Source of the DNA: a virus | Taxonomy: Duplodnaviria > Caudoviricetes | Length of the DNA: 64,000 nucleotides | IMG/VR virus record: IMGVR_UViG_3300027769_000026 | Coordinates: 1-64,000 of that record | Direction: 5' to 3' (one strand) | Notes under the pieces: model-generated | What the model was told of the DNA's origin: nothing | The model's input: only the letters and a program-made list of their open reading frames with translations | Database searches by the model: none | Program-made: the position numbers and the translations under genes | In this document: positions 5,154 through 44,805 of the stretch, in pieces | Numbering within the stretch: position 1 is the first letter of the stretch | Layout: each line of letters opens with the position of its first letter

Positions 5154-5993
5154 TTATCCTGACAGCGCAATCGCTAGGTAAAGCTGTTGATCCACGTATC
5201 TCTTATTAGTTAGCTGATTTGCTAATGTTGGCACAGCAGATACGCTGGCAGAAGTAAACGTAGCGGCAGCAGGCGTTGATGCACCAATTGGAGTACCATT
5301 TATTGATCCGCCAGTTATGGCCACATTGCTAAAGCTGGATGAATCTGTTGTGTTGATACCAGATTCTGGTCTAGCAAGTTCTTGCCAAGCAGTGCCTTTG
5401 GCGTAATATATTTTTGATGTGTCGTTGGCATAGGCCATACTGCCTTCCCATACTGCGGCATCTGGAAAGCTAGCAACATTATCAAAATAAAAACGTATCT
5501 TGTTTGACGTACCTGTTGCTTCAACTAATGGTGATGACACTTTTCCTGTTGTAACTGTAAAATTGGGTGCTGTTACTGTGCCTGTTGCTGTCACAGCAGA
5601 ATTTACTGTGACCACTGTAGGACTGTTTAATACCAGTTCATTAAGAGGATCAGTACTGGAAACACTGCGAGTGTTTATGTTAGTGGCTGAAAGTGTTGTG
5701 CCGTTCCAAGTTAGGTTGGCACTGCCTTCTACAGCGCCGTTGTTTGAATATGCAACACGATCGTCTGCTAATCCAGTAATGGTTAACTTTGGAGTTGATA
5801 CTGTGCCGGTACCTGTTGGAGAGAGTGTGATTGTTTTGTTGGCACCTTGTGCGGCAATGGCAGTTCCACTGACCAGCAGATCACCACCGCGCAAGCTGAC
5901 TGCTGTTAGTGATCCGTCGTCATTGAGTTCGATCCCTGGTACATTGAAACCATAGTCTGATTCAAATTTGACCTGTTGTGCATTAACCGCCAT
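5154..5993 (-). CDS. fibre-like virion protein (279 aa) ending in ...YLAIALSG
   Basis: T/G/S/A-rich; has a LTNKRYVD coiled motif and a hydrophobic AIALxG terminus shared with other genes in the cluster. Confidence 0.65.
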   Translation of the reverse strand: MAVNAQQVKFESDYGFNVPGIELNDDGSLTAVSLRGGDLLVSGTAIAAQGANKTITLSPTGTGTVSTPKLTITGLADDRVAYSNNGAVEGSANLTWNGTTLSATNINTRSVSSTDPLNELVLNSPTVVTVNSAVTATGTVTAPNFTVTTGKVSSPLVEATGTSNKIRFYFDNVASFPDAAVWEGSMAYANDTSKIYYAKGTAWQELARPESGINTTDSSSFSNVAITGGSINGTPIGASTPAAATFTSASVSAVPTLANQLTNKRYVDQQLYLAIALSG

Positions 5994-13686: not shown

Positions 13687-16600
13687 TTACAAGTTGATGA
13701 TCATATGTCCGCTGCTATTTACCGTGATGCTAGCGTCGTAGTTGCTAACAAACACAGTGTCGCCGCCGGCTTGGTTCACTGTCAGGACGTCTGTTCCTGT
13801 GTTACCGCTTGCTGATGAATATACCATTTCACCTGTAGTAGTTGACCAATTCACTGCATGTCCCTGTGGACGAGCAATGGCATCAACATAGGTTTTGTTG
13901 GTCAAATGCACACCTGTTGTTGGAGCCAATGCAGTTTTTGGACGACTTGTAAATGATACTTCATTAGTGCCGTCGGCAGCAAGAATCAAGTCTTTTGAAC
14001 GCAGACTTGTTATTGTTTGTCCGGTCAAGAACATGTCGCCCAGCTCAATACTGGTTGCAACCAGTGCTGATCCGCCACCGCCCACAAGGTTGGTAACAAA
14101 GCTCTTGATAGCACGTTGAGTTGGCAAAATACTGTCAGAGTTGGCAACAAAAGTTGGATCTGTGGAGAACTCATTGATCACAGCACCTGTTCCGCCCAAT
14201 GCAACTGAACCCAATTGCAATGATGTCAAACCGCTCAAGTTAAATGCGTCAGCATTCAATGTGGCAATACCAGTGGCCTGTTCTACTCGGAATAGTTCAC
14301 CAACACGGAAGTTACCATCCTGGTCGGTTGATGTATAGAATACTCGGCCGCCACCATATTCAACCACTTCGTTGGCCTGTATTAGTTCAAGCTCAGTTTC
14401 GCCTGGGTAGTTGGATTGTGCCAAATTACCAAAGCCAATATTCAAGAAGTCATGGCCGGTCAATCGAACGTTGGAGTATCTTTCATATATGTCGATCACT
14501 GCCGCATGAGCCGGAGGTGTAGTTGATGCAATATACGGACTAACTTGCAGTCTTGCATTGTAAACTGATCCATCCAGCGTCAGATTGGTTACTGCAACAA
14601 TACGATAGTATGTTGGGTCTCCGGTAATTACCAAATTTGAACCTGCTTTGGGTGCTGCCACTAAATTGCTTACATTTAGATAGCCGCCCACTTGTTCAAT
14701 ATTAGCAAAACCGTCACCAGATACAACTGCACTAGCAGAAGTATAACCTGAACCCCTTGACAAGAATGTTGGAGGAGCAATAGCGCCAGATGTGGTCAGT
14801 GTTGTTGTAAATGTAGCTGCCACAGTGGCATTGGGATCTGTGATTGTCAATGCTGGAGAAGATGCGTACCCTGCACCGCAATTGATAATTCTAATTCCAG
14901 TAATTGAACCTGCTTCTACAACCACACGCAATACTGCAGGTGTTGAAGGTGTGCCACCAGATACCTGAACACGAGGTTCAATGGTGTATCGTGTGGTTGA
15001 GTCTAGTGTGGCTGCAATGCTGGCACCTTGTATAGAAGTAAATCCAGGATTGCCTAGGTCGTCTACAATATCAGCTTCTTTGGTTCCGCCATTGTATGAA
15101 CTTATGACGCCAGTTTGACCTGCACCAGTACCATCAATCAACACAATTCTCATGCCATTGTAACCGCTGGTTACCATGGAGTCGCTGGTTGCTAATCTGA
15201 TCGTTGTGCTGGTTCCACTCTGTGCGTTGTTGGTCACTGACTGATAACCTGAGCCGCCTGCTGTGACTTTAACGTGTGCTACTGCATTGTTTGCAAAATT
15301 CATTGTGGCACTGGCACCTGCGCCGTTACCGCTAAAGCCAATAGATGCTGATGTGTAATTTTGACCAGTGTATGAATACTCCACACGAAGAATCTGTCCG
15401 CCACCGACCAATACGTTGTCAACTTGAGCTTCGTTTGAATAGTTGTTTACTGTGGCATGTTGAGCTGTTTCAGTTGGATCAACACCTTCAGACACAGAAC
15501 CATATGTTCCATAAGAGTTGTTACCGTTGGTAGCACGAATTGTACCGCCTAGTTCAGTTAGATAACCCATGTAAGCATAATAGGTAAACACAGAAACCAA
15601 TTCCATGCGTCCTAGATTCAGTGCCCATGCGCCAATGCCGTCTGATATAACTTGTGTAAAATCGTTGGCCACAATTGACTTGTTGCCGCCACCATGCAAG
15701 CTGCCATCAACTTTGACACCAGTACATCCGTAACCAAATGTAGACACGTTTTGTACATACGGACTCTTGTTGCGAATCCAAACGGACGCATCTTCGGTTC
15801 CGGTGCCCGGATCTAGAGACACAAATGCTCCACCTGTGGTTCTGCGTGTGCCCGATGCTCCTGGTGCGCTTAACCCGCCGTTGAGTCCACGCAAAGTCAT
15901 GTTACGCAGGCCTGTTCCATTTCTCATATAGAACATGTTTGCAGTAGCATACCCTGCGGTTGGTTCAATGATAGTTCCACGCAGTTCGTCGCCTACTAAA
16001 GCAGTGTTTTCAGGAATGCTGATTGGAAGAATTTCAGCAAAAGTACCAGTCTTGATGAAGATTGTGTTAGTAGAACCAGTGGTTCTAACTGGTACACTGG
16101 ATGTAGATCCTGCTGTGAGTGCTGTTGTGATAATTGAAAACAAATTTGTAATAGTAGAAGAAGTATTTGCTTCTGCTGTATATGACAAATTGATAGTCTG
16201 ACTGATCGCTGGTGTATAACTGGTCAGTGTTTGATAATTGTTTGCTGGCGCAGTATTACCCACTGCATTCAACATCAAATCTCTCAGTTTACCCAGTGCG
16301 GCAATGATATAAGGCATTGCGGCCGCTGTGGCTGCATTGTAAAATGTTGATGAGTTTTCAAAGTAGGCCAGTGTTGCCGATACAGTTTGAGCATTTGATC
16401 CGTGTGTCAAATCGTACTGCACTGCTTCCACAATGTACTGTGCATCACGCAGTGTTGATGCTTGGTCAAACACAGAGCTTGGAGAGAATGGTGCTGCCGA
16501 GATGCTCTTCTGATATATCATCCACTGATACATTTCTCTGACCATCCAGCTTTGATTTAGATCAATCAGTGTGCTGGCGTTAGAGAAGCTGGTACCAAGT

Positions 16601-36572: not shown

Positions 36573-39500
36573 TTAGGTCTTGTTATTGAGGTTTTCTAGC
36601 ACATCAACAGTGCGTCTTGAATCTCCTGCCACCTGATCCTGGCGACCCAATATTGCTGTTAGTATCTGATTGGTTTGAGCTTGCTGTTCTGCCAGCGTTC
36701 TGATATCCGATTGTGTTTGTTCTGCTCTGGTCGCTTGTGCAGTTTGGGCAGAACTTTGCTGTGACCCATCGCTTGCCGTGGCCACAGTGCCTAGTGCACC
36801 CGCAGTCACTGACCCAATGCCAGTGGAACTATTCGGTGTTTGCACGTTTCCTCTAGTGGAACCAGCACGTCGACGATTTGCTTCGGCTTGCATCCGTGCT
36901 TCTTCACGTGCTTCATTTTGTACCCCAATATCGTCTGGAAAACTTGATCTGGACATCAATGCATTGTAAATTTCTCTTTCGTCTGTGCTGGTTTCTGTAA
37001 TGTCGTTGTCAGTGTTGGTACTTGTACCAGCACTTCTGCTTCTAGCGGCATTTTCCGGAGGACGATTCAATGCACCTGTAGCGGCAACAGCACCCACAGC
37101 ACCAGGCGTAACTGAACTTACAGCACCTTGAGATTTTTGTCTATTATATTGCTCCATTAACCAAGCAGGGTAGTTTCTTGCATTGCGAGGATCCATTTGC
37201 AAAGCCATATCTAATGCTGCCATTTGATCTGATGTTAACGCTTTGCCTTCTTCAACTACTTTACCTGCGACTCTTAATTCATTTCTTCGTTCAGTCATTG
37301 TTCCAGGCTGTGCTCCACCGGGTGCAGGTGTTGGCTGTATCGCATTGAGCTCTCGGTTGATGCCTCTGTTGCTTGCACCAAAAAATTGTCTTGATATCCA
37401 TCCGCCTGCAGATTCAGCAGCCCCGCCTAGGAACTTATCAGCGATCATTGAACCGCCAATGGCACCAGCAATACCAACTGGTGCTGATGCAACACCTAAT
37501 CCAGCAATGCCTCCTGCAAGACCGCCAACTGCACCGCCAGCGCCAGCAACTGCACCTCGTGTGAGAGATCCACCCCTAGATTCAGCAATTTTGTCATCAA
37601 GTTCTCTAAGTGCTTTCTCAGCATCTCCTCTTGATAGTTCTCCTTTGGTGTATTTGTCAATGACCTGCCTGCGCATGTTTTGCAGGTCACTAACCGATGT
37701 AAATTCGTTTAGCACTACACCAAAGAGAGAACCAATAATGCCGCCACCTCTGACTTGTCTTGCTCCGGCTTTGACTGCACTAGCAACTCCAGACATGTTA
37801 GATGCAGTACCAGCCGCAGGATTAGGCGCAGGAGATGCACCTGGTGCAGGTGTTCCTGGTGGGGGTGTTACTGCGCCCGGCACTGTTGCTGGTGCAGGAG
37901 ATGTTGGCACTTGTAATGGTCTGCCATCTGGACCTAAAATTGTACTAGGTCTAGTTGCTCCAGGTGTACCTGTTGGAGGTGTACCTGTTGGAGGTGTACC
38001 TGTTGGAGGTGTACCTGTTGGAGGTGTACTTGGTCTATTTGCGGCCGCGCCTGCCGCGCCAGTGGCAGCAGTTCCTGGTGCTCCTCCTGGAGAAGGAGTT
38101 GGGTTTGGTCCAGTTGGTGGAACAGTTGGTCCAGGTCCAGGACCCCTACCACCAAATATGCCGCCTGCGCCTCCTGCGCCTCCGCGCATTGCTCCGCCTA
38201 TGCCTCGCAAGGCCAGGAATGGCGCTAGCAACGCTAATGCGGCAACCATGCCATAGATTAGATTTTTTGTAGTGTTTGATAATCCAAGGAATTTATCTAC
38301 TGTGGCATTGATTGCATTTTGCAAGCTGGTAAATGCTGGCATCAGTGGCTCAACTGCTCGCAATAGATCTCCTTGCACTTGTTGTAGTTTTCTCTGCGAT
38401 TCAATGTATGCGCCTGCGGCATCGGCGCCTGCGCCAGTTGGCGCATTGCCCAGTTGTGCAACTTGATCTGGAGTGCGTGTGGCGGCGGCTCTTCTGATAA
38501 AATCAATAAGGCCTCTAGCATCAGCATCACCTGTGGCAGCCATGACTGCAAGAGGAGATCCTTTAAGATTTTGTAATGCTGTGGCGGCAGCTGGTTGTAG
38601 CATTGCTGCCTGTTTTGCAGGATCAGTCTCGTTACGATATTCTTCAGACTGCATGATCCTACCAAGGTCTGAAGAAAGTGTTTGTAGTTTTGCAAAGGCA
38701 CCACCTATCACAGTGGGGTCAAATCCACCTAATGCGGCATATTCCAGTTCATTTGTTATCTGGCCTGCAAACTGCCCGCCAATGGCCGCAAGTGTTTTTC
38801 CAAATGTTTCAAGCTCTTGAGCCGCTTTTCGTTCTCCTGCAGCCAACATGCGCTGTTGTGCGGCTCGGAACATATCGTTGCGGTACAGTTGATCAAATGC
38901 GCTGTTTAGTTCATCAACAGACTTGCCTGTTGTTTGTGCTAATCTATACAGCTCTCTTGCCTGATCTTCAGCCATGCGCTGTGCAGTTCTTTGCGCTTCA
39001 GCACCTGTTAATCCTGCTTGACCTACCATCATAACAGAACGGCTATACGATGCCATTAGCTGTTCAATGTTCTGCCCGTAAAAGTTGGCTTTCTTAGCAC
39101 TGTCTAAATATTGTTTTGCACCATCAGCAAATCGTTGTCCTGAATTTCTAATGTTTTCATCAAGCATGCCAGCCATGTTGCCAGCATCCGCAACGGCTTT
39201 GTTGAATTGTTCCAGTGTCAGGCCAGCTGTCTTTGCTGAAATAGCAAAGCTGAGTGCTGTTGTGGCCAGTCCACCTAGACCAGATCCAAATGCTTTGATT
39301 GTTGTCTGTGCACCTTGCTGCCATACTTCATATAACCTTACGGCCGCAGCCGCGGCCAATCCCAACGAAGCTGAAAATGCAGTTACCAACGGTGCAAGTG
39401 GCCCAAGTATGGACATCAGTCTACCAGCAACACCAGCAAACATGCCTTCAAGCATGCCCATTACACCACCTTTTACATCTCCGCCTATTATGCGTTTGAT

Positions 39501-40499
39501 GTTTTCGGCACTTTGGTTTTTGCCGCCGGTATTTCTACGATATATGTCTTCGTATTTTTCTCCCGGGCGCAGCCTATATTGTGTGTCTTTTGACTTGATA
39601 CCTTTGTCTAGGTCCTTGAATGCTTTGCTTAACTTGTCAGCATCGTCTCCGGCTGCATTGACTGCTTGTCTGAATTCTTCCAAAGGTTTTTTGGCGGCAG
39701 CACCAAATGTGGCTCGTATGTCCTGTGCAATGATTTTTGCGGCGGCTTGGCGTTGTTCAGGCGTGAGCTTGCGGAGATCTTCCCTTACACTTTTGATAGA
39801 TTCGCTTGCTCTTCTGGTTGCCGGATCTAGCTTTTCGTCGTTTTTGTTGGCTCTTACCCTGTCAGCAAAGCTGTATCTTCTTGCTCTGCCCAGCGTTTTT
39901 TCTAGATCTTCGGTTTGATTTGCGTTGTATCTGGCACGGCGATTTGCGTTTTGTGACGCTGATGCAGTGCTGGCATTGCCTCTGATTCCGCTGGAAGTGT
40001 TACGATTGATAGAACTTAGCAGTGCATTGGCACGTGCTTGTTGCTGTGATAAAGACTTGAAACCTGACTCCATGGCACGAGTTAGTGTGCGATTTCCTAA
40101 GGAAATAGATGCAGGACTCATGCCGGATGAAACAGCAACTCTGTTCCTGGCAGATGTGTTTTTTGTTTCTAATTTACGTATAGCTGAAACTACTGCGCTC
40201 TGTCCCTTGGCTATGTTATTGAGTCCAACGCTTAGAGATTTTATTGCTGATGCATTTGTTTGCTGTGCTTTGACTGACTTGTCCAGGCGTCCAATAACTG
40301 CTTTTTGATTGCTCAGATCTTTTGTGGCTGTGCTCTGTTGCTTGGACAGCAGATCATTTGTCTTTTTAACAGCAGACAACAAGGCAGCATTCCTGGTGCC
40401 CATGACACTTGAAAGGCTGTTGATAGATTCTTCCGTGGCCCATTTTGGCCAAGCGGCAATCTTGCTAGCGAGTTGATCCGGATCCGGTGGTAATGCCAT
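36573..40499 (-). CDS. tape-measure-like protein (1308 aa) with a Pro/Gly/Thr-rich segment
   Basis: Long Ala/Gly-rich helical protein with hydrophobic stretches, divergently adjacent to the gp26-like gene; late promoter upstream. Confidence 0.7.
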   Translation of the reverse strand: MALPPDPDQLASKIAAWPKWATEESINSLSSVMGTRNAALLSAVKKTNDLLSKQQSTATKDLSNQKAVIGRLDKSVKAQQTNASAIKSLSVGLNNIAKGQSAVVSAIRKLETKNTSARNRVAVSSGMSPASISLGNRTLTRAMESGFKSLSQQQARANALLSSINRNTSSGIRGNASTASASQNANRRARYNANQTEDLEKTLGRARRYSFADRVRANKNDEKLDPATRRASESIKSVREDLRKLTPEQRQAAAKIIAQDIRATFGAAAKKPLEEFRQAVNAAGDDADKLSKAFKDLDKGIKSKDTQYRLRPGEKYEDIYRRNTGGKNQSAENIKRIIGGDVKGGVMGMLEGMFAGVAGRLMSILGPLAPLVTAFSASLGLAAAAAVRLYEVWQQGAQTTIKAFGSGLGGLATTALSFAISAKTAGLTLEQFNKAVADAGNMAGMLDENIRNSGQRFADGAKQYLDSAKKANFYGQNIEQLMASYSRSVMMVGQAGLTGAEAQRTAQRMAEDQARELYRLAQTTGKSVDELNSAFDQLYRNDMFRAAQQRMLAAGERKAAQELETFGKTLAAIGGQFAGQITNELEYAALGGFDPTVIGGAFAKLQTLSSDLGRIMQSEEYRNETDPAKQAAMLQPAAATALQNLKGSPLAVMAATGDADARGLIDFIRRAAATRTPDQVAQLGNAPTGAGADAAGAYIESQRKLQQVQGDLLRAVEPLMPAFTSLQNAINATVDKFLGLSNTTKNLIYGMVAALALLAPFLALRGIGGAMRGGAGGAGGIFGGRGPGPGPTVPPTGPNPTPSPGGAPGTAATGAAGAAANRPSTPPTGTPPTGTPPTGTPPTGTPGATRPSTILGPDGRPLQVPTSPAPATVPGAVTPPPGTPAPGASPAPNPAAGTASNMSGVASAVKAGARQVRGGGIIGSLFGVVLNEFTSVSDLQNMRRQVIDKYTKGELSRGDAEKALRELDDKIAESRGGSLTRGAVAGAGGAVGGLAGGIAGLGVASAPVGIAGAIGGSMIADKFLGGAAESAGGWISRQFFGASNRGINRELNAIQPTPAPGGAQPGTMTERRNELRVAGKVVEEGKALTSDQMAALDMALQMDPRNARNYPAWLMEQYNRQKSQGAVSSVTPGAVGAVAATGALNRPPENAARSRSAGTSTNTDNDITETSTDEREIYNALMSRSSFPDDIGVQNEAREEARMQAEANRRRAGSTRGNVQTPNSSTGIGSVTAGALGTVATASDGSQQSSAQTAQATRAEQTQSDIRTLAEQQAQTNQILTAILGRQDQVAGDSRRTVDVLENLNNKT
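37962..38029. repeat. perfect 15-bp tandem repeat x4 plus a partial copy (PPTGT)
   Basis: AGGTGTACCTGTTGG at 37962, 37977, 37992 and 38007. Confidence 0.95.
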
Positions 40500-40610: not shown

Positions 40611-41459
40611 ATGACACAAGCTAACAATCCGTTAGGACAGTATTTTAGAAAGCCAGGACTCAATGTGGCATTGCCCAGCGGAGGAAAGTTCTACAAGACA
40701 CCGCCCAAGATAACTGTTGACGGTGAGATTGCGGTATATCCAATGACTGCAAAAGACGAACTGCTGGTAAAAAATGCAGACTCTTTGCTGAACGGAGATG
40801 CTATTGTTCAATTGATCAAGAGCTGTGTGCCTGACATTGCGGACCCACAAGAAATGCCCAATCCAGACGTGGATGCTGTACTGCTGGCCATACGCAAAGC
40901 CACATATGGTGAAAAGATGGAAATAACTGCCAGTTGTCCATGCAACGAATGGTCAGGCACTTACTCCATTGGAGTGGACAATCTTTTGATGAGGATCAAA
41001 GGCATTGACCCTGTGAATGAAGTTGAATTGTCAAACGAACTGCTGGTAAGATTGGCTCCCAGCACCTTGGCTGACCAAAATCGACTGGGCATGATACAGT
41101 TTGAAAACGTGCGCAAGCTACAAACTGTGATGGATTCCGAAGACGAAGAACTTAAACTGCGTGTAAGCAACGAAGTAACTGGTCGCAACATTGAGCTGGC
41201 ACAAGAAATCATATCAAAGGTCATCATAGCAGTGATCACACCAGATGGTAATGAAATCAATGATCGCAAGTTCATCAGTGAGTGGTTGGGTCAGCTGGAA
41301 ACCACAGAGTTCAAGAAAATCGAAGACAAGATCAGACTGATCAATCAAAGTGGCGCAGAAACAAAGGTTGAAGTTGGCTGTGGCAAAGAAGGATGTGATC
41401 GCAAGTTTGAAATTGAATTCACACTGGACCCAGTAAGTTTTTTCGCACAAGGCTCCTGA
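40611..41459 (+). CDS. gp26: baseplate hub assembly protein (gp26-like)
   Basis: NPLGQYFRKPG..V.LPSGGKFY, VYPMTAKDELL, LLNGDA, DVDAVLLAIRKATYG, C-terminal CxxxxC and DPVSFF. Confidence 0.85.
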   Translation: MTQANNPLGQYFRKPGLNVALPSGGKFYKTPPKITVDGEIAVYPMTAKDELLVKNADSLLNGDAIVQLIKSCVPDIADPQEMPNPDVDAVLLAIRKATYGEKMEITASCPCNEWSGTYSIGVDNLLMRIKGIDPVNEVELSNELLVRLAPSTLADQNRLGMIQFENVRKLQTVMDSEDEELKLRVSNEVTGRNIELAQEIISKVIIAVITPDGNEINDRKFISEWLGQLETTEFKKIEDKIRLINQSGAETKVEVGCGKEGCDRKFEIEFTLDPVSFFAQGS

Positions 41460-41480
41460 GCACCACCGACAATGCTCAGG
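41438..41480 (+). promoter_or_regulatory. candidate -1 programmed ribosomal frameshift site
   Basis: T TTT TTC heptamer in X XXY YYZ phase (41438-41444); perfect 8-bp stem CCTGAGCA/TGCTCAGG (41455-41480); the -1 frame is open into 41480..41689. Confidence 0.7.
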
Positions 41481-41689
41481 TGATGAAGTACGTTGACGAA
41501 TATCGCACTGAAGCCAGGAGCCTGATAAAAGATGTACAACAACTAGCAGTGTACAGTGGGCTCAGTTACAACGAAGTGATCAACATGAGCCTGGAAGAAA
41601 GACAAGTCCTGTCAGAAGTCATCAAAGACAAACTAGACCTAGACATGAAGCTAGCTGGTATCAAGACCAAAAAAGAAACATACATGTAA
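41480..41689 (+). CDS. gp51-like baseplate/tail chaperone; probably the -1 frameshift extension of the gp26-like gene
   Basis: GLSYNEVINMSLEERQVL motif; no SD before GTG 41480; the frame is open from the slippery site. Confidence 0.7.
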   Translation: MMKYVDEYRTEARSLIKDVQQLAVYSGLSYNEVINMSLEERQVLSEVIKDKLDLDMKLAGIKTKKETYM

Positions 41690-41699
41690 GTCAGAGCTT

Positions 41700-42269
41700 G
41701 CCTTATATTTCAAGTATCCTCTAACACTTGGCTGCTGTCGCAGCCTTCATTTCACATTCACATCGCTATCGCTCGTGATATGTTCATGAATCATTTTTAT
41801 TTTTTAGATTCTAAGATTTATTTTGTTTACTAGTGAAACAAGATGATATTTTCTCTGAGGTTCCAGCCACACTTCGCCCTGTTAAGGGCAAAGTGAAAAG
41901 CTGGACTAAGGACTTTCTCCAGAGTACCATACCACATCTATCAGAAACAACCCAGAGGGCAAAGGCGGTCATGCTGTACCTTTTTACGTCTATCTTCTTT
42001 AATGACGCTGACTAATCCAAGACACCCGATAGAATCGTCTTGGGATCATGCAAGTTATAATTGTCAATAGAGCTTGCTCATTTTGGTCTTACCATTCTCA
42101 CACCAAGCCAGTTTCATACCGTTTGACTCGCGTCCTGTAAAGGATAGTGGTGCTGAGTCTGTGCTACCGCGCACAATTTCCGTCCCTGCGATACGTGTGT
42201 CCAGGTCTAGGGCAACTAGTTATGCGGCCGTTGCGCAGCCTATCGGTAGTGTTGAGCCTGTGGGGAGTT
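41700..42269 (-). ncRNA. putative large structured non-coding RNA (alternatively a replication-origin region)
   Basis: About 570 nt with no credible CDS in an otherwise densely coding genome; several hairpins, two of which need G-U pairs available only on the minus strand. Boundaries are approximate. Confidence 0.5.
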
Positions 42270-42788
42270 TTAAGGGATAGAAAGGGTTTTAACTGCGTCT
42301 TTGTTCAATTGCCAAAAGTCGTCAAAGCCTGTAAATGCCCATGGTCCGTGTGTTACGCTGTCGTAACGGACATGCCTATGTGTTGTAAATGTAGGGAAGT
42401 GCTTGTACTCAAACGCAATGAAGCTGCCTTTTCTGTTGAACTTCATGATAACAATGTTAAGGTCATTGTCATCGGCAGCCTCAATGGTCTGGTCTATCCA
42501 GTTGTCTAAGAGTGTTATCTTACCTGACGCGAAAAGCTGGTGGAACGGAAACTCGGCATAGCTTTTGCATTCTATGTTGAGATGCTTCCAGTCACTTGGG
42601 GGAGTGATGTCGCCCTTCATTGAGCGTATCTGCCCTTCGTGCAAGAATTCTTTGCGAACAGCATTTTTGCCACCCACGTATGCACCGCTGGATGGAACAC
42701 GTATGAACGATGCTCCATACAGTTCGGACAAGAAATTTGCGACATCTCTTTCCCAGGACTTACCTTTGTTTTTGCTTTTCGACGCCAT
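42270..42788 (-). CDS. Holliday junction resolvase-like PD-(D/E)XK nuclease
   Basis: SKNKGKSWERDVANFL, RVPSSGA, GDI, IECKSY. Confidence 0.85.
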   Translation of the reverse strand: MASKSKNKGKSWERDVANFLSELYGASFIRVPSSGAYVGGKNAVRKEFLHEGQIRSMKGDITPPSDWKHLNIECKSYAEFPFHQLFASGKITLLDNWIDQTIEAADDNDLNIVIMKFNRKGSFIAFEYKHFPTFTTHRHVRYDSVTHGPWAFTGFDDFWQLNKDAVKTLSIP

Positions 42789-42820: not shown

Positions 42821-43027
42821 TCAGGCCTTCTTATCGGTCATAGCAGTTTTCTCTACCATGATTTCCTTGCGGCGCTCACCAGCTGCCTTGCGGATGTCGC
42901 CTAGCGCCTTACGTGCGCGACTTGCAGCCGCCTTGACGCCCTTGCCAGTGAACTTAGCGTTCTCGTCGAGATACGTTTGAAATGCTTCTGCAATAATGTC
43001 GTGATTGCTTTTTGTTTGTTCGGTCAT
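42821..43027 (-). CDS. histone H1-like (Hc1-family-like) DNA-binding protein
   Basis: KFTGKGVKAAASRARKALGDIRKAAGERRKEI. Start at ATG 43027 with GGAGG 7 nt upstream. Confidence 0.7.
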   Translation of the reverse strand: MTEQTKSNHDIIAEAFQTYLDENAKFTGKGVKAAASRARKALGDIRKAAGERRKEIMVEKTAMTDKKA

Positions 43028-43029
43028 TT

Positions 43030-44805
43030 TCATGCCTCCACCATATCCACATCCGTCGAGAACGTGGTAAATCCGTTTTCTTTGACAACCTGCAAACTGT
43101 TGTTCACACGTGTTATCAATTCATCTCTATGAGATATCAAGAAAACATTCTTCTTTGATTCTCTGCTGAACTTCTTGAGCACGGCCAGTGCGGCGTCTAC
43201 GCCAACTGGATCCATACCTGAATCTACAAGCTCGTCGATGAACAGCAAATTACAAGGAAAATTCAAACTCTCAAACACGTCTCTGAAACTCCAACTCAAT
43301 CCAAGAATGAGTCGGTTACGTTCTCCTCGGCTGAGGTTATCAAAGTCAAATTCTTGTCCTAGCATCTTGATACCAACAGTAAGGTCGCTTTGGAAATTGA
43401 CCTCATGTGGCAACTGTAGCAATGTAAGATAGTGATTCAACCTGTGATTCAAATAGCTCAAGTTCTGCTCAATAATGCGACGTCGCACAAATGAGTCCTT
43501 GTTAGTAAGCAATTTATACAAGAACTCTTGGTGTTCAAGTTTCTTGTTAAGAACGTTGATTGGGTTCCAGTCAACTTCTGCTAGTGCTTTGTTGCGCAAT
43601 GTTTCAATCTGATCCTGATATGGATCCGTGTCCGCATCACGCTGTACCAATTGCGATTTTAGGTTTTCCAAGCTACTTTTGTGGTTCACAGCATCATTTA
43701 TGTCGGTGTACCGAACATGTGGTGCTGTGCCCAAAACACCAGATTCTTCAATCTTTGTTTTGGCCTCCTGCTCCAGCGCATGTTCACGCTCTAGATCATC
43801 TGCCACGCTCATCATTGCAGATTCCAGCTCGGAGATCATGGATGTTTGTTGGTCATCATGCAAGCCCTGTCCGCAAGCATGACACTTGTGATCTTTTGCT
43901 TTATCGCATGCGCCAGTTAACTCTACCAACTGCCCGCTCAGACGCTTTACTGCGGCCTGTGCATTTGCCAAGTCCTTGGTGTAACGCTTGATCTTTTGCT
44001 CTTTTTCTTTCCATGCAGTCAGTGCTGAATGGTTTGCAAGTTCTTGGTCAATGTCAATGGTTTCAAGTTCGTTGATCGAAGCAACCAGCTTAACCATGTC
44101 TTCATCTTTTTTCTTGACCCAGATGCGACTGCGACGTTCAATGTCCTCAATTGATGCTTGGATCTTGGCATTGGTTTCTTGCAGTGCCCTGATTCGGAAT
44201 TCTTCTTCTTTGATGCCATCTCTAGTGTGGCGCATGGCTTCTTTGAGTAGCTCTGCTTTTTCACTCAGCAGTGTGATACCAAGAAGCTCTTCAATGATCT
44301 CTTTTTGATCATTGTTCTTCATGCTAAGGAAAGGTTCGTTGTAGGTGTTCAGCGCCAGGATGTGTTTGAACATTTCGTGGCTCATGCCCAGGATGCGCTC
44401 TACTGCTTCCTGGGTAAGTTTGTTTTCGCCCTGTCCTTCGTTTGTGCCTGCTTCGTTTACTTCGTCATCGTCAACTGCGAAACGAAATATGTTGGGCTTG
44501 CGTCCACGTTCAATGCGATAGGTGTGGCCATTCTTTTCAAACTCCACAGTGACCAGCATGTTCTTGTCGTTGGTCTTGTTGATAAGATTGTCTTTGCGGA
44601 TGTTGCTGAGCGCATTGCCATATAGCGCATAGCTGAGTGCATTGACGATTGTGGTCTTGCCCACACCGTTACGTGCGCCTTCACCACCCATGTCCATGTT
44701 AAGGCCAATGACTAGGGTGAGGCCATGCTGGTCTAGATTTACCGCTTGGGTAACATTACCAACAGACAGGAAGTTCTTTACTGTGAGATTTTTAATTGTC
44801 AGCAT
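43030..44805 (-). CDS. gp46: recombination exonuclease subunit, SbcC/Rad50-like (gp46)
   Basis: Walker A NGVGKTT, coiled coil with CHACG zinc hook, signature LSRGER, Walker B LLFIDE. Start at ATG 44805. Confidence 0.96.
   Translation of the reverse strand: MLTIKNLTVKNFLSVGNVTQAVNLDQHGLTLVIGLNMDMGGEGARNGVGKTTIVNALSYALYGNALSNIRKDNLINKTNDKNMLVTVEFEKNGHTYRIERGRKPNIFRFAVDDDEVNEAGTNEGQGENKLTQEAVERILGMSHEMFKHILALNTYNEPFLSMKNNDQKEIIEELLGITLLSEKAELLKEAMRHTRDGIKEEEFRIRALQETNAKIQASIEDIERRSRIWVKKKDEDMVKLVASINELETIDIDQELANHSALTAWKEKEQKIKRYTKDLANAQAAVKRLSGQLVELTGACDKAKDHKCHACGQGLHDDQQTSMISELESAMMSVADDLEREHALEQEAKTKIEESGVLGTAPHVRYTDINDAVNHKSSLENLKSQLVQRDADTDPYQDQIETLRNKALAEVDWNPINVLNKKLEHQEFLYKLLTNKDSFVRRRIIEQNLSYLNHRLNHYLTLLQLPHEVNFQSDLTVGIKMLGQEFDFDNLSRGERNRLILGLSWSFRDVFESLNFPCNLLFIDELVDSGMDPVGVDAALAVLKKFSRESKKNVFLISHRDELITRVNNSLQVVKENGFTTFSTDVDMVEA

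Follow-up and report, generated by a model that had tools for sequence, protein, structure and literature searches.

The Polynucleobacter-1 motif as the head of a half-kilobase RNA with twin words in freshwater T4-like phages

What does the largest intergenic gap in a stretch of T4-like phage DNA encode? The gap spans 580 nt (positions 41690–42269) of a 64,000-nt sequence, hereafter the window, which belongs to an 81-kb IMG/VR virus record with T4-like genes. It is by far the largest of the window, all others measuring 143 nt or less if three small ORFs within it are disregarded, and it separates two convergent units. On the plus strand, the gp26 baseplate hub gene (40611–41459) is followed by a 69-aa ORF (41480–41689) that ends at the gap. 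The minus strand carries gp55, MazG, gp47, gp46 and, between gp46 and a nuclease gene, a gene for a 70-aa Hc1-like protein (42821–43033; Pfam Hc1, E 6e-9). The nuclease gene itself (42270–42788, with its stop at 42270) lies upstream of the gap and encodes a 172-aa PDDEXK_15 phage endonuclease (Pfam PF24608, E 1e-27), labeled a RusA-like resolvase in the PHROG library (phrog_244). A preliminary description of this region, made from the sequence alone, had singled out the gap as the window's largest, non-coding and set between convergent units, and this reading held.

No conserved ORF was found within the gap. The small ORFs (53 aa at 41811–41972 on the minus strand, 60 and 68 aa on the plus strand) were rejected as not conserved, and the ATG of the 53-aa ORF, at 41972, falls within a covarying helix that reads GUCAU/AUGAC here and GUUGA/UCAAC, GUUGU/ACAAC or GUCGU/ACGAC in relatives. 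Measured against shuffled sequences, the fold z-score was −3.2 for the minus strand vs −1.75 for the plus strand; this, and the strand of the Rfam match given below, agrees with the minus-strand sense that had been proposed for the RNA.

Across the 64 kb of the window, Rfam 15 produced one match that reached its gathering score: RF01718, Polynucleobacter-1, at 42099–42239 on the minus strand (86.9 bits, gathering score 37; E 1e-18 to 1e-20), covering model positions 1–141 of 141. The consensus helices of the family are present, helices 2–7 being 95–100% paired with compensatory changes; in the window copy, P1 is GCAAC/GUUGC, P3 is UGUGC/GCACA and P6 is GAGUCA/UGGCUU, with a few non-standard pairs flagged by cmscan, one of them in P2. 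Between 41000 and 43000, ROOL, GOLLD, HEARO, group I and II introns and known ribozymes gave no Rfam 15 match at E up to 1, and the only other match at that level was a chance-level c-di-GMP-I inside the PDDEXK ORF. The preliminary description had presented one large structured RNA in the ROOL/GOLLD size class that could not be assigned to a known family, and had named an Infernal search as the check that could remove its novelty. The single RNA of ~530 nt, on the minus strand and filling nearly the whole gap, stands; it is neither ROOL nor GOLLD, and the novelty of its 5′ 141 nt is gone, these being a full-length match to a known family.

The Polynucleobacter-1 motif was first reported by Weinberg et al. 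(2010, Genome Biol 11:R31, PMC2864571), who found it in metagenomes of freshwater and estuaries and in a single Polynucleobacter genome. Most copies lay downstream of one gene family, GOS11034 (a possible homolog of PSSM2_218), the motif was not detected in any sequenced purified phage, and it was listed as possibly cis-regulatory (PMC2864571). A literature search found no later functional work on it, and a blastn comparison of the region with phage GenBank records returned no match. Like the copies originally described, that of the window directly follows a small gene and is of freshwater origin. Unlike the catalogued 141 nt, it forms the 5′ quarter of a ~530-nt RNA in a T4-like phage contig, the part beyond the model comprising a second pseudoknot (PK2), a P10/P12 knot, twin words and a GAGCGAUAGCGA motif.

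How far the RNA extends was read from its relatives. An exact-pattern scan for the motif core recovered more than 117 IMG/VR contigs, yielding 51 non-redundant versions; in these, selected on the 5′ core only, conservation runs 300–400 nt downstream of the RF01718 model, and conservation together with covariation extends ~370 nt beyond it. The blocks conserved there are GGUAC...ACCGCC, a central hairpin rich in GC with GUGAC behind it, a GAGCGNUAGCGA motif and a terminal hairpin. For the structure test, 92 pairs in 19 helices were drawn by hand on an alignment of 57 phage versions. Standard pairs filled 88.6% of the cells vs 36–44% when partners were slid by 1–3 columns, 77 of the 92 pairs had changed on both sides, and compensatory cells numbered 662 compared with at most 187 in the slid controls; none of 500 shuffles reached any observed measure. 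The covariation among homologs that the preliminary description had proposed as a check was thus found. Helix 19 was mis-registered and left out of the support. The RNA has a minimum of 18 helices that covary, and four of its pairings are tertiary or crossing (P0/P1, PK1, PK2 and P10 across P12).

The window copy falls in a divergent subgroup with L119–L122 (~95–97% identity), L030, L099 and L128. An alignment within this subgroup recovered the same architecture with fresh compensatory changes; P8, for instance, is GCAAG/CUUGC here, and GUAGG/CCUAC and GUGAG/CUCAC in subgroup relatives. A 3′-domain covariance model derived without the subgroup had one match in the 64 kb, at 41842–42009 on the minus strand, which was weak (15.9 bits, E 0.15), and the putative homology of the window's 3′ domain rests mainly on the alignment to its closer relatives. 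Overall, what lies in the gap is almost certainly the gene of a genuine large structured RNA, Polynucleobacter-1 in its full-length form. The family is known; its full-length form, pseudoknots, twin words and phage setting are absent from Rfam and from the literature searched. A 141-nt motif that has stood as an orphan since 2010 would then be only the head of a ~0.5-kb RNA with several pseudoknots.

The RNA gene runs on the minus strand from ~42259 to 41730 (~530 nt), both ends being estimated from the conservation profile and the alignments. Its 5′ leader, AGGCUC, starts ~10 nt past the PDDEXK_15 stop codon. A short helix P0 (GGC/GCC) follows, the loop of which, GCAAC, pairs with GUUGC at 42212–42216 to form the Rfam P1; of the longer GGCUG/CGGCC helix described earlier, these ~3 bp are conserved or covarying and the remaining pairs are not. 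The first pseudoknot, PK1, hand-placed from the alignment, joins UACCG (42244–42248) with CGGUA (42165–42169) in the loop of P3; four of its five pairs show compensatory changes and 90.5% are paired. P3 itself is UGUGC (42171–42175) with GCACA (42160–42164), a helix the preliminary description had already drawn. Together, P1, P2, P3 and a three-way junction of P4, P5 and P6 make up the 5′ domain, which is the RF01718 motif (42099–42239). Within the junction, the GACUC/GAGUC helix suggested earlier gives way to the pairs of the family, GAGUCA with UGGCUU (P6) and GCACC with GGUGU (P4), and only the CC/GG pairs of the proposed UCCU/AGGA belong to the consensus (P5).

Downstream of the motif, a hairpin P9 (AUCCCAAGAC...GUCUUGGAU, 42015–42046) contains the covarying CCAAGAC/GUCUUGG stem noticed from the sequence. 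Its loop, UCUAUC (42028–42033), pairs with GAUAGA (41937–41942) ~90 nt downstream to form PK2, in which 7 of 7 pairs show a compensatory change; the counterparts in relatives are UUUGGAUU/AAUCCAAA (L030), CUUGGAUU/AAUCCAAG (L128) and UCUGAUA/UAUCAGA (L099). P9 and PK2 are covered by helices 9–12 of the alignment test. Helices 13 and 15, which supplied the top mutual-information pairs, correspond to a knot at 41961–42006, where P10 (GUCAU, 42002–42006, with AUGAC, 41968–41972) crosses P12 (AAAGG/CCUUU) around an invariant GGUAC...ACCGCC core. The 11-bp hairpin that had stood out at 41870–41895, CACUUUGCCCU-UAAC-AGGGCGAAGUG, is the conserved central hairpin P13 and covaries (CUUAGCC/GGCUAAG, UUGACCC/GGGUCAA); it is followed by GUGGC, the counterpart of the family's GUGAC. 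The UCCAGC/GCUGGA pairing is present in the window copy and specific to its lineage.

The 3′ tail (41757–41839; helices 17 and 18) consists of a small hairpin GUUUCACUAGUAAAC (41825–41839), an A-rich linker (41792–41824) and a helix P15 with the conserved GAGCGAUAGCGA motif (41757–41779). Behind it stands a terminal hairpin, GGCUGC-GACA-GCAGCC (41730–41745). The mini-hairpins of the GCGATAGC type in the earlier account correspond to the family-wide GAGCGAUAGCGA motif. The AT-rich tract reported there is also present, as a single-stranded, A-rich linker within the RNA that differs in length among versions. The terminal hairpin, likewise seen at the outset, has its place taken by a different GC-rich hairpin in relatives and probably marks the 3′ end of the RNA; being terminator-like on the plus strand, it may also serve as a terminator of the convergent gp26 operon.

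A further feature of the RNA lies in the 3′ domain, where two copies of a 7-nt word flank the central hairpin, 47–72 nt apart, in every version. The words sit in a fixed frame, NNA-CUC-word-G and NNA-UCU-word-A. In the window, segment 1 is UAC-UCU-GGAGAAA-GU (41912–41926; word 41914–41920) and segment 2 is AAC-CUC-AGAGAAA-AU (41848–41862; word 41850–41856), both on the minus strand. The family frame is preserved here, with CUC and UCU in exchanged places and a word that starts with G in one copy and with A in the other. Among lineages the word varies, and within each RNA both copies are alike. Phage words include GGAUAAU, AGAUAAU, GCAUAAU, GAAUAAU, GGAUGAU and AGAUGAU, as well as GGAUGAA, AGUUGAA, AAAUGAG, AGUCAAG, CGUCAAG and GGAAAAU; the bacterial ones are AUCGAAA, ACCAAAA and GGCGAAA. 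The frame is kept across thirteen phage word forms and three bacterial ones. The twin-word columns are identical in 78–100% of sequences and have only each other as mutual-information partners. Such covariation, by identity and not by complementarity, is of a rare type and points to a reader of the words. Fixed differences between the two copies are all transitions (C/U or G/A), so a single partner with G or U at these positions could pair with either copy.

A partner for the word was sought within the RNA, in trans and in the flanking DNA. In most of the divergent members, no complement of the word occurs inside the RNA. The GUUGUUU tract at the end of the Rfam motif was rejected as a partner: it pairs with the main-family word by wobble only, does not covary, and fails in divergent members. 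RNAalifold suggested that the UCU preceding word 2 pairs with the initial bases of word 1; this was also discarded, since UCU is constant whatever the word. A 15-nt wobble consensus of a trans partner found nothing beyond chance in the 81-kb record, in a complete 400-kb related phage or in a 3.1-Mb RNA-carrying bacterial genome. In the flanks of 102 loci, an RNA's own word was not enriched relative to the words of other lineages (sense 60 vs 72, antisense 39 vs 38).

Several other explanations of the words were tried and set aside. The word spacing, measured here at 47–58 nt, is not in multiples of three, as a rolling template or concatemer ORF would have it. Mimicry of, or complementarity to, a tRNA anticodon loop or T-loop, an anti-Shine–Dalgarno sequence, a stop codon or a −10 element, compared by eye, fails in each case for part of the words. 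The sharing of a word by two diverged copies in one bacterium was considered as a sign of a genome-specific partner and dropped, because sharing tracks overall similarity across genomes. No allele with a solo word, as excision would leave, was present among ~100 unique versions.

The surroundings of the RNA are conserved in phages. In every phage locus, gp46 comes first, in many cases with an Hc1-like gene next to it, and then a small nuclease gene; the RNA lies behind the latter, and up to two variable genes separate it from a convergent gp26. The nuclease ORF and the RNA are 0–20 nt apart and have no conserved promoter between them; behind the RNA, most relatives carry a gene on the same strand with a TATAAATA-type late promoter. 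The position is fixed throughout a freshwater clade of T4-like phages, whose genomes reach ~400 kb in some members. The RNA is a fixed neighbor of recombination genes in an abundant phage clade, and it also occurs on small mobile elements of bacteria.

The nuclease slot is occupied by two unrelated proteins that were never found together: the 172-aa PDDEXK_15 protein of the window or, in most relatives, a SegE-like GIY-YIG protein of 142 aa that has only the PF19835 catalytic domain and no recognizable DNA-binding domain. Among loci found through the GIY-YIG protein, the RNA is directly behind its gene in 63 of the 65 tested. Behind PDDEXK_15, it was detected in 8 of 20 loci by the Rfam model and in at least 16 of 52 by the 3′-domain model; three of these loci (L145, L146 and L136) have a 3′-domain match and no Rfam match at the gathering score. 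The Rfam model under-detects the family, and a full-length model would improve annotation by recovering such copies. As a separate observation, the 3′-domain match in L146 and L162 lies ~1 kb beyond the nuclease gene, and another gene may have been inserted between the two.

The 81-kb record contains no GIY-YIG homolog, and the RNA is therefore independent of this gene in cis. The exchange of nucleases looks like non-orthologous replacement, or like a homing endonuclease displacing a resident gene. Free-standing Seg homing endonucleases of T4 sit beside conserved genes, an arrangement known as intronless homing. Our loci resemble it in that a SegE-like GIY-YIG gene adjoins a highly conserved gene that also exists without the endonuclease, as in this window; they differ in that the conserved neighbor is an RNA gene, that the 142-aa protein lacks a recognizable DNA-binding domain, and that GIY-YIG appears to replace PDDEXK_15 and not to add to it.

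In bacteria, 7 of the 121 relatives searched carry the RNA, some genomes having two copies. The RNA sits between a divergent DUF6641 gene and the gene of a 195-aa tyrosine recombinase (Phage_integrase, catalytic domain only), upstream of the latter. A relaxed core pattern run on genome contigs gave almost only chance matches, with one true locus among the matches returned. One 3.1-Mb genome carries two full-length copies, 84% identical and 9 kb apart, in locus L329 (G002:C15:178000-196632), with RNA matches at 5767–5902 and 14646–14783 on the minus strand. Each copy has a divergent DUF6641 gene, one of them being followed by the 195-aa catalytic-only recombinase, and a 934-aa ORF without a Pfam match and a TPR protein gene lie between the copies.

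What, then, does the RNA do? The best explanation as a whole, which we favor at somewhat better than even confidence, is that of a full-length Polynucleobacter-1 RNA acting in trans, with twin address words that are read externally. The RNA would probably be transcribed as a 3′ continuation of the gp47-gp46-Hc1-PDDEXK_15 transcript, as suggested by the lack of a conserved promoter between the nuclease gene and the RNA, and would probably end at, or be protected by, the terminal hairpin (41730–41745). Once folded, it would act in trans, its 3′ domain displaying a short address word twice, each time in the fixed frame. The reader would be a nucleic acid outside the RNA, able to pair with either copy by using G-U wobble; for the window, the predicted partner is 5′-AU-UUUCUCU-GGG-GU-3′. 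An external nucleic acid is the most economical reader, given that the word is free to change between lineages, that its copies are alike, that no internal complement exists and that the copies differ by transitions only. We nevertheless regard recognition of the word by base pairing as a tentative proposal, short of an even chance. The searches described above found no partner, CUC and UCU are conserved differences that a common partner does not require, and in the window the words differ at the first base and the triplets are swapped. Identifying the reader of the word would settle the role of the RNA.

A sigma-70-like promoter match (ATGACA-16-TATCAT with TG, 10 of 12 positions) was also noted at 42445–42472 on the minus strand, inside the PDDEXK_15 ORF, with ~200 nt between it and the RNA downstream. 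No other candidate dedicated promoter was seen, and a match of this kind is within what chance would give in the region.

An alternative that we consider unlikely is a cis-acting element. It would be either a 3′ UTR that stabilizes the mRNA of the nuclease operon or signals its processing, or a leader that serves the downstream gene in relatives and the recombinase in bacteria. The position of the RNA directly after an ORF without a promoter of its own would suit the former, and the same-strand gene with a late promoter behind it in most relatives, like the bacterial recombinase gene, would suit the latter; the motif was also listed as possibly cis-regulatory by Weinberg et al. (PMC2864571). 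However, ~500 nt with four tertiary or crossing pairings far exceeds what a stabilizer needs, the next gene in the window is convergent and the RNA leads nothing there, the flanking genes vary among contexts while the RNA is constant, and the twin words would have no role.

The size, pseudoknot density and invariant core sequences would also fit an ornate self-assembling or catalytic RNA, that is, a homo-oligomeric cage like those of ROOL and GOLLD, or a ribozyme traveling with homing enzymes as group I introns do. GIY-YIG and PD-(D/E)XK are indeed known classes of intron-associated homing endonucleases. We consider this quite improbable: no ROOL, GOLLD, intron (group I or II) or ribozyme model of Rfam matched, there is no split host gene or exon context, and identical words cannot pair with each other, nor was any self-complementary contact seen. 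To our knowledge, neither ROOL nor GOLLD has a twin-word feature. Like the present RNA, these two are large and highly structured, are common in phages and prophages, occur on mobile bacterial DNA and are without an assigned function; cryo-EM work on them is available (PMC12286853). They differ from the present RNA in length, 600–800 nt vs ~530 nt, and in sequence and structure as judged by Rfam. The full-length RNA thus joins the larger conserved bacterial and phage RNAs of unassigned function.

A guide or scaffold role for the neighboring catalytic-only DNA enzyme appears similarly doubtful. Here, the words would specify two identical half-sites, or recombining sites that share a core, for the SegE-like GIY-YIG or PDDEXK_15 protein in phages and the 195-aa tyrosine recombinase in bacterial islets. 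Seven nucleotides is the length of both the tyrosine-recombinase overlap region and the guides of IS110 bridge RNAs. The RNA always adjoins a small gene for DNA cutting or joining (142, 172 or 195 aa), as at 63 of the 65 GIY-YIG loci, and its bacterial copies are patchy and sometimes multi-copy, like mobile elements. The bridge (seek) RNAs of IS110/IS1111 and the omega RNAs of IscB/TnpB (HEARO) are comparable in that a structured non-coding RNA lies beside a small DNA enzyme on mobile DNA and carries short hypervariable segments in a conserved scaffold. The partner folds here, in contrast, are GIY-YIG, PD-(D/E)XK and tyrosine recombinase, and HEARO gave no Rfam match. In bridge RNAs the variable segments match donor and target, whereas here the two segments match each other and no guide–target match was found. 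An adjacent DEDD/Tnp recombinase with donor and target guide loops, as in IS110-type systems, was looked for and not found, and no word matched DNA beyond chance.

Further points weigh against a guide role. Three unrelated enzyme folds would have to share one RNA, many phages in which both models fail to detect the RNA have PDDEXK_15 in this slot with its length unchanged, and the RNA persists in the window's 81-kb record without the GIY-YIG gene. A nuclease beside an RNA that also occurs alone fits a free-standing homing endonuclease next to a conserved target equally well, and no matching DNA site appeared in the 400-kb phage, the 3.1-Mb bacterium or the flanks of the 102 loci. More specifically, the RNA could be the nucleic-acid-recognition subunit of a new RNA-guided DNA enzyme system, with GIY-YIG as the enzyme in phages and the recombinase in bacterial islets, which we judge very unlikely; the 7-nt words, each with a 3-nt extension that matches between copies, would then address two identical half-sites or sites with a shared core.

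The R-loop-primed replication origin that the preliminary description had offered as its alternative, or another DNA-level element, could draw on the AT-rich tract (41790–41830, GC ~0.30) and the adjoining recombination genes gp46 and gp47, but is extremely improbable, as compensatory changes keep RNA pairs, including G-U pairs valid on the minus strand only, the tract is a variable-length linker within the RNA, GC and AT skew follow gene strand only, no solo-word alleles occur among the ~100 unique versions, and no conserved promoter lies at the RNA 5′ end. In T4-type origins (oriF/oriG type), a promoter transcript persists as an R-loop over a DNA-unwinding element, and a conserved fold is not needed. 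The externally read, trans-acting RNA remains the reading that we prefer.

Two of the surrounding genes deserve mention in their own right. The Hc1 family comprises chlamydial histone H1-like proteins, and the 70-aa Hc1-like ORF is kept at the same position in many relatives; a histone-like DNA-condensing protein inside a T4-like recombination operon is unusual. On the other side of the gap, a 1308-aa ORF (36573–40499, minus strand) adjoins the baseplate hub gene and gave no PHROG match at E up to 0.01. Its relatives in L119–L122 share 52–55% identity, as compared to 84–98% for neighboring genes, and its product is a candidate fast-evolving structural or receptor-binding protein.
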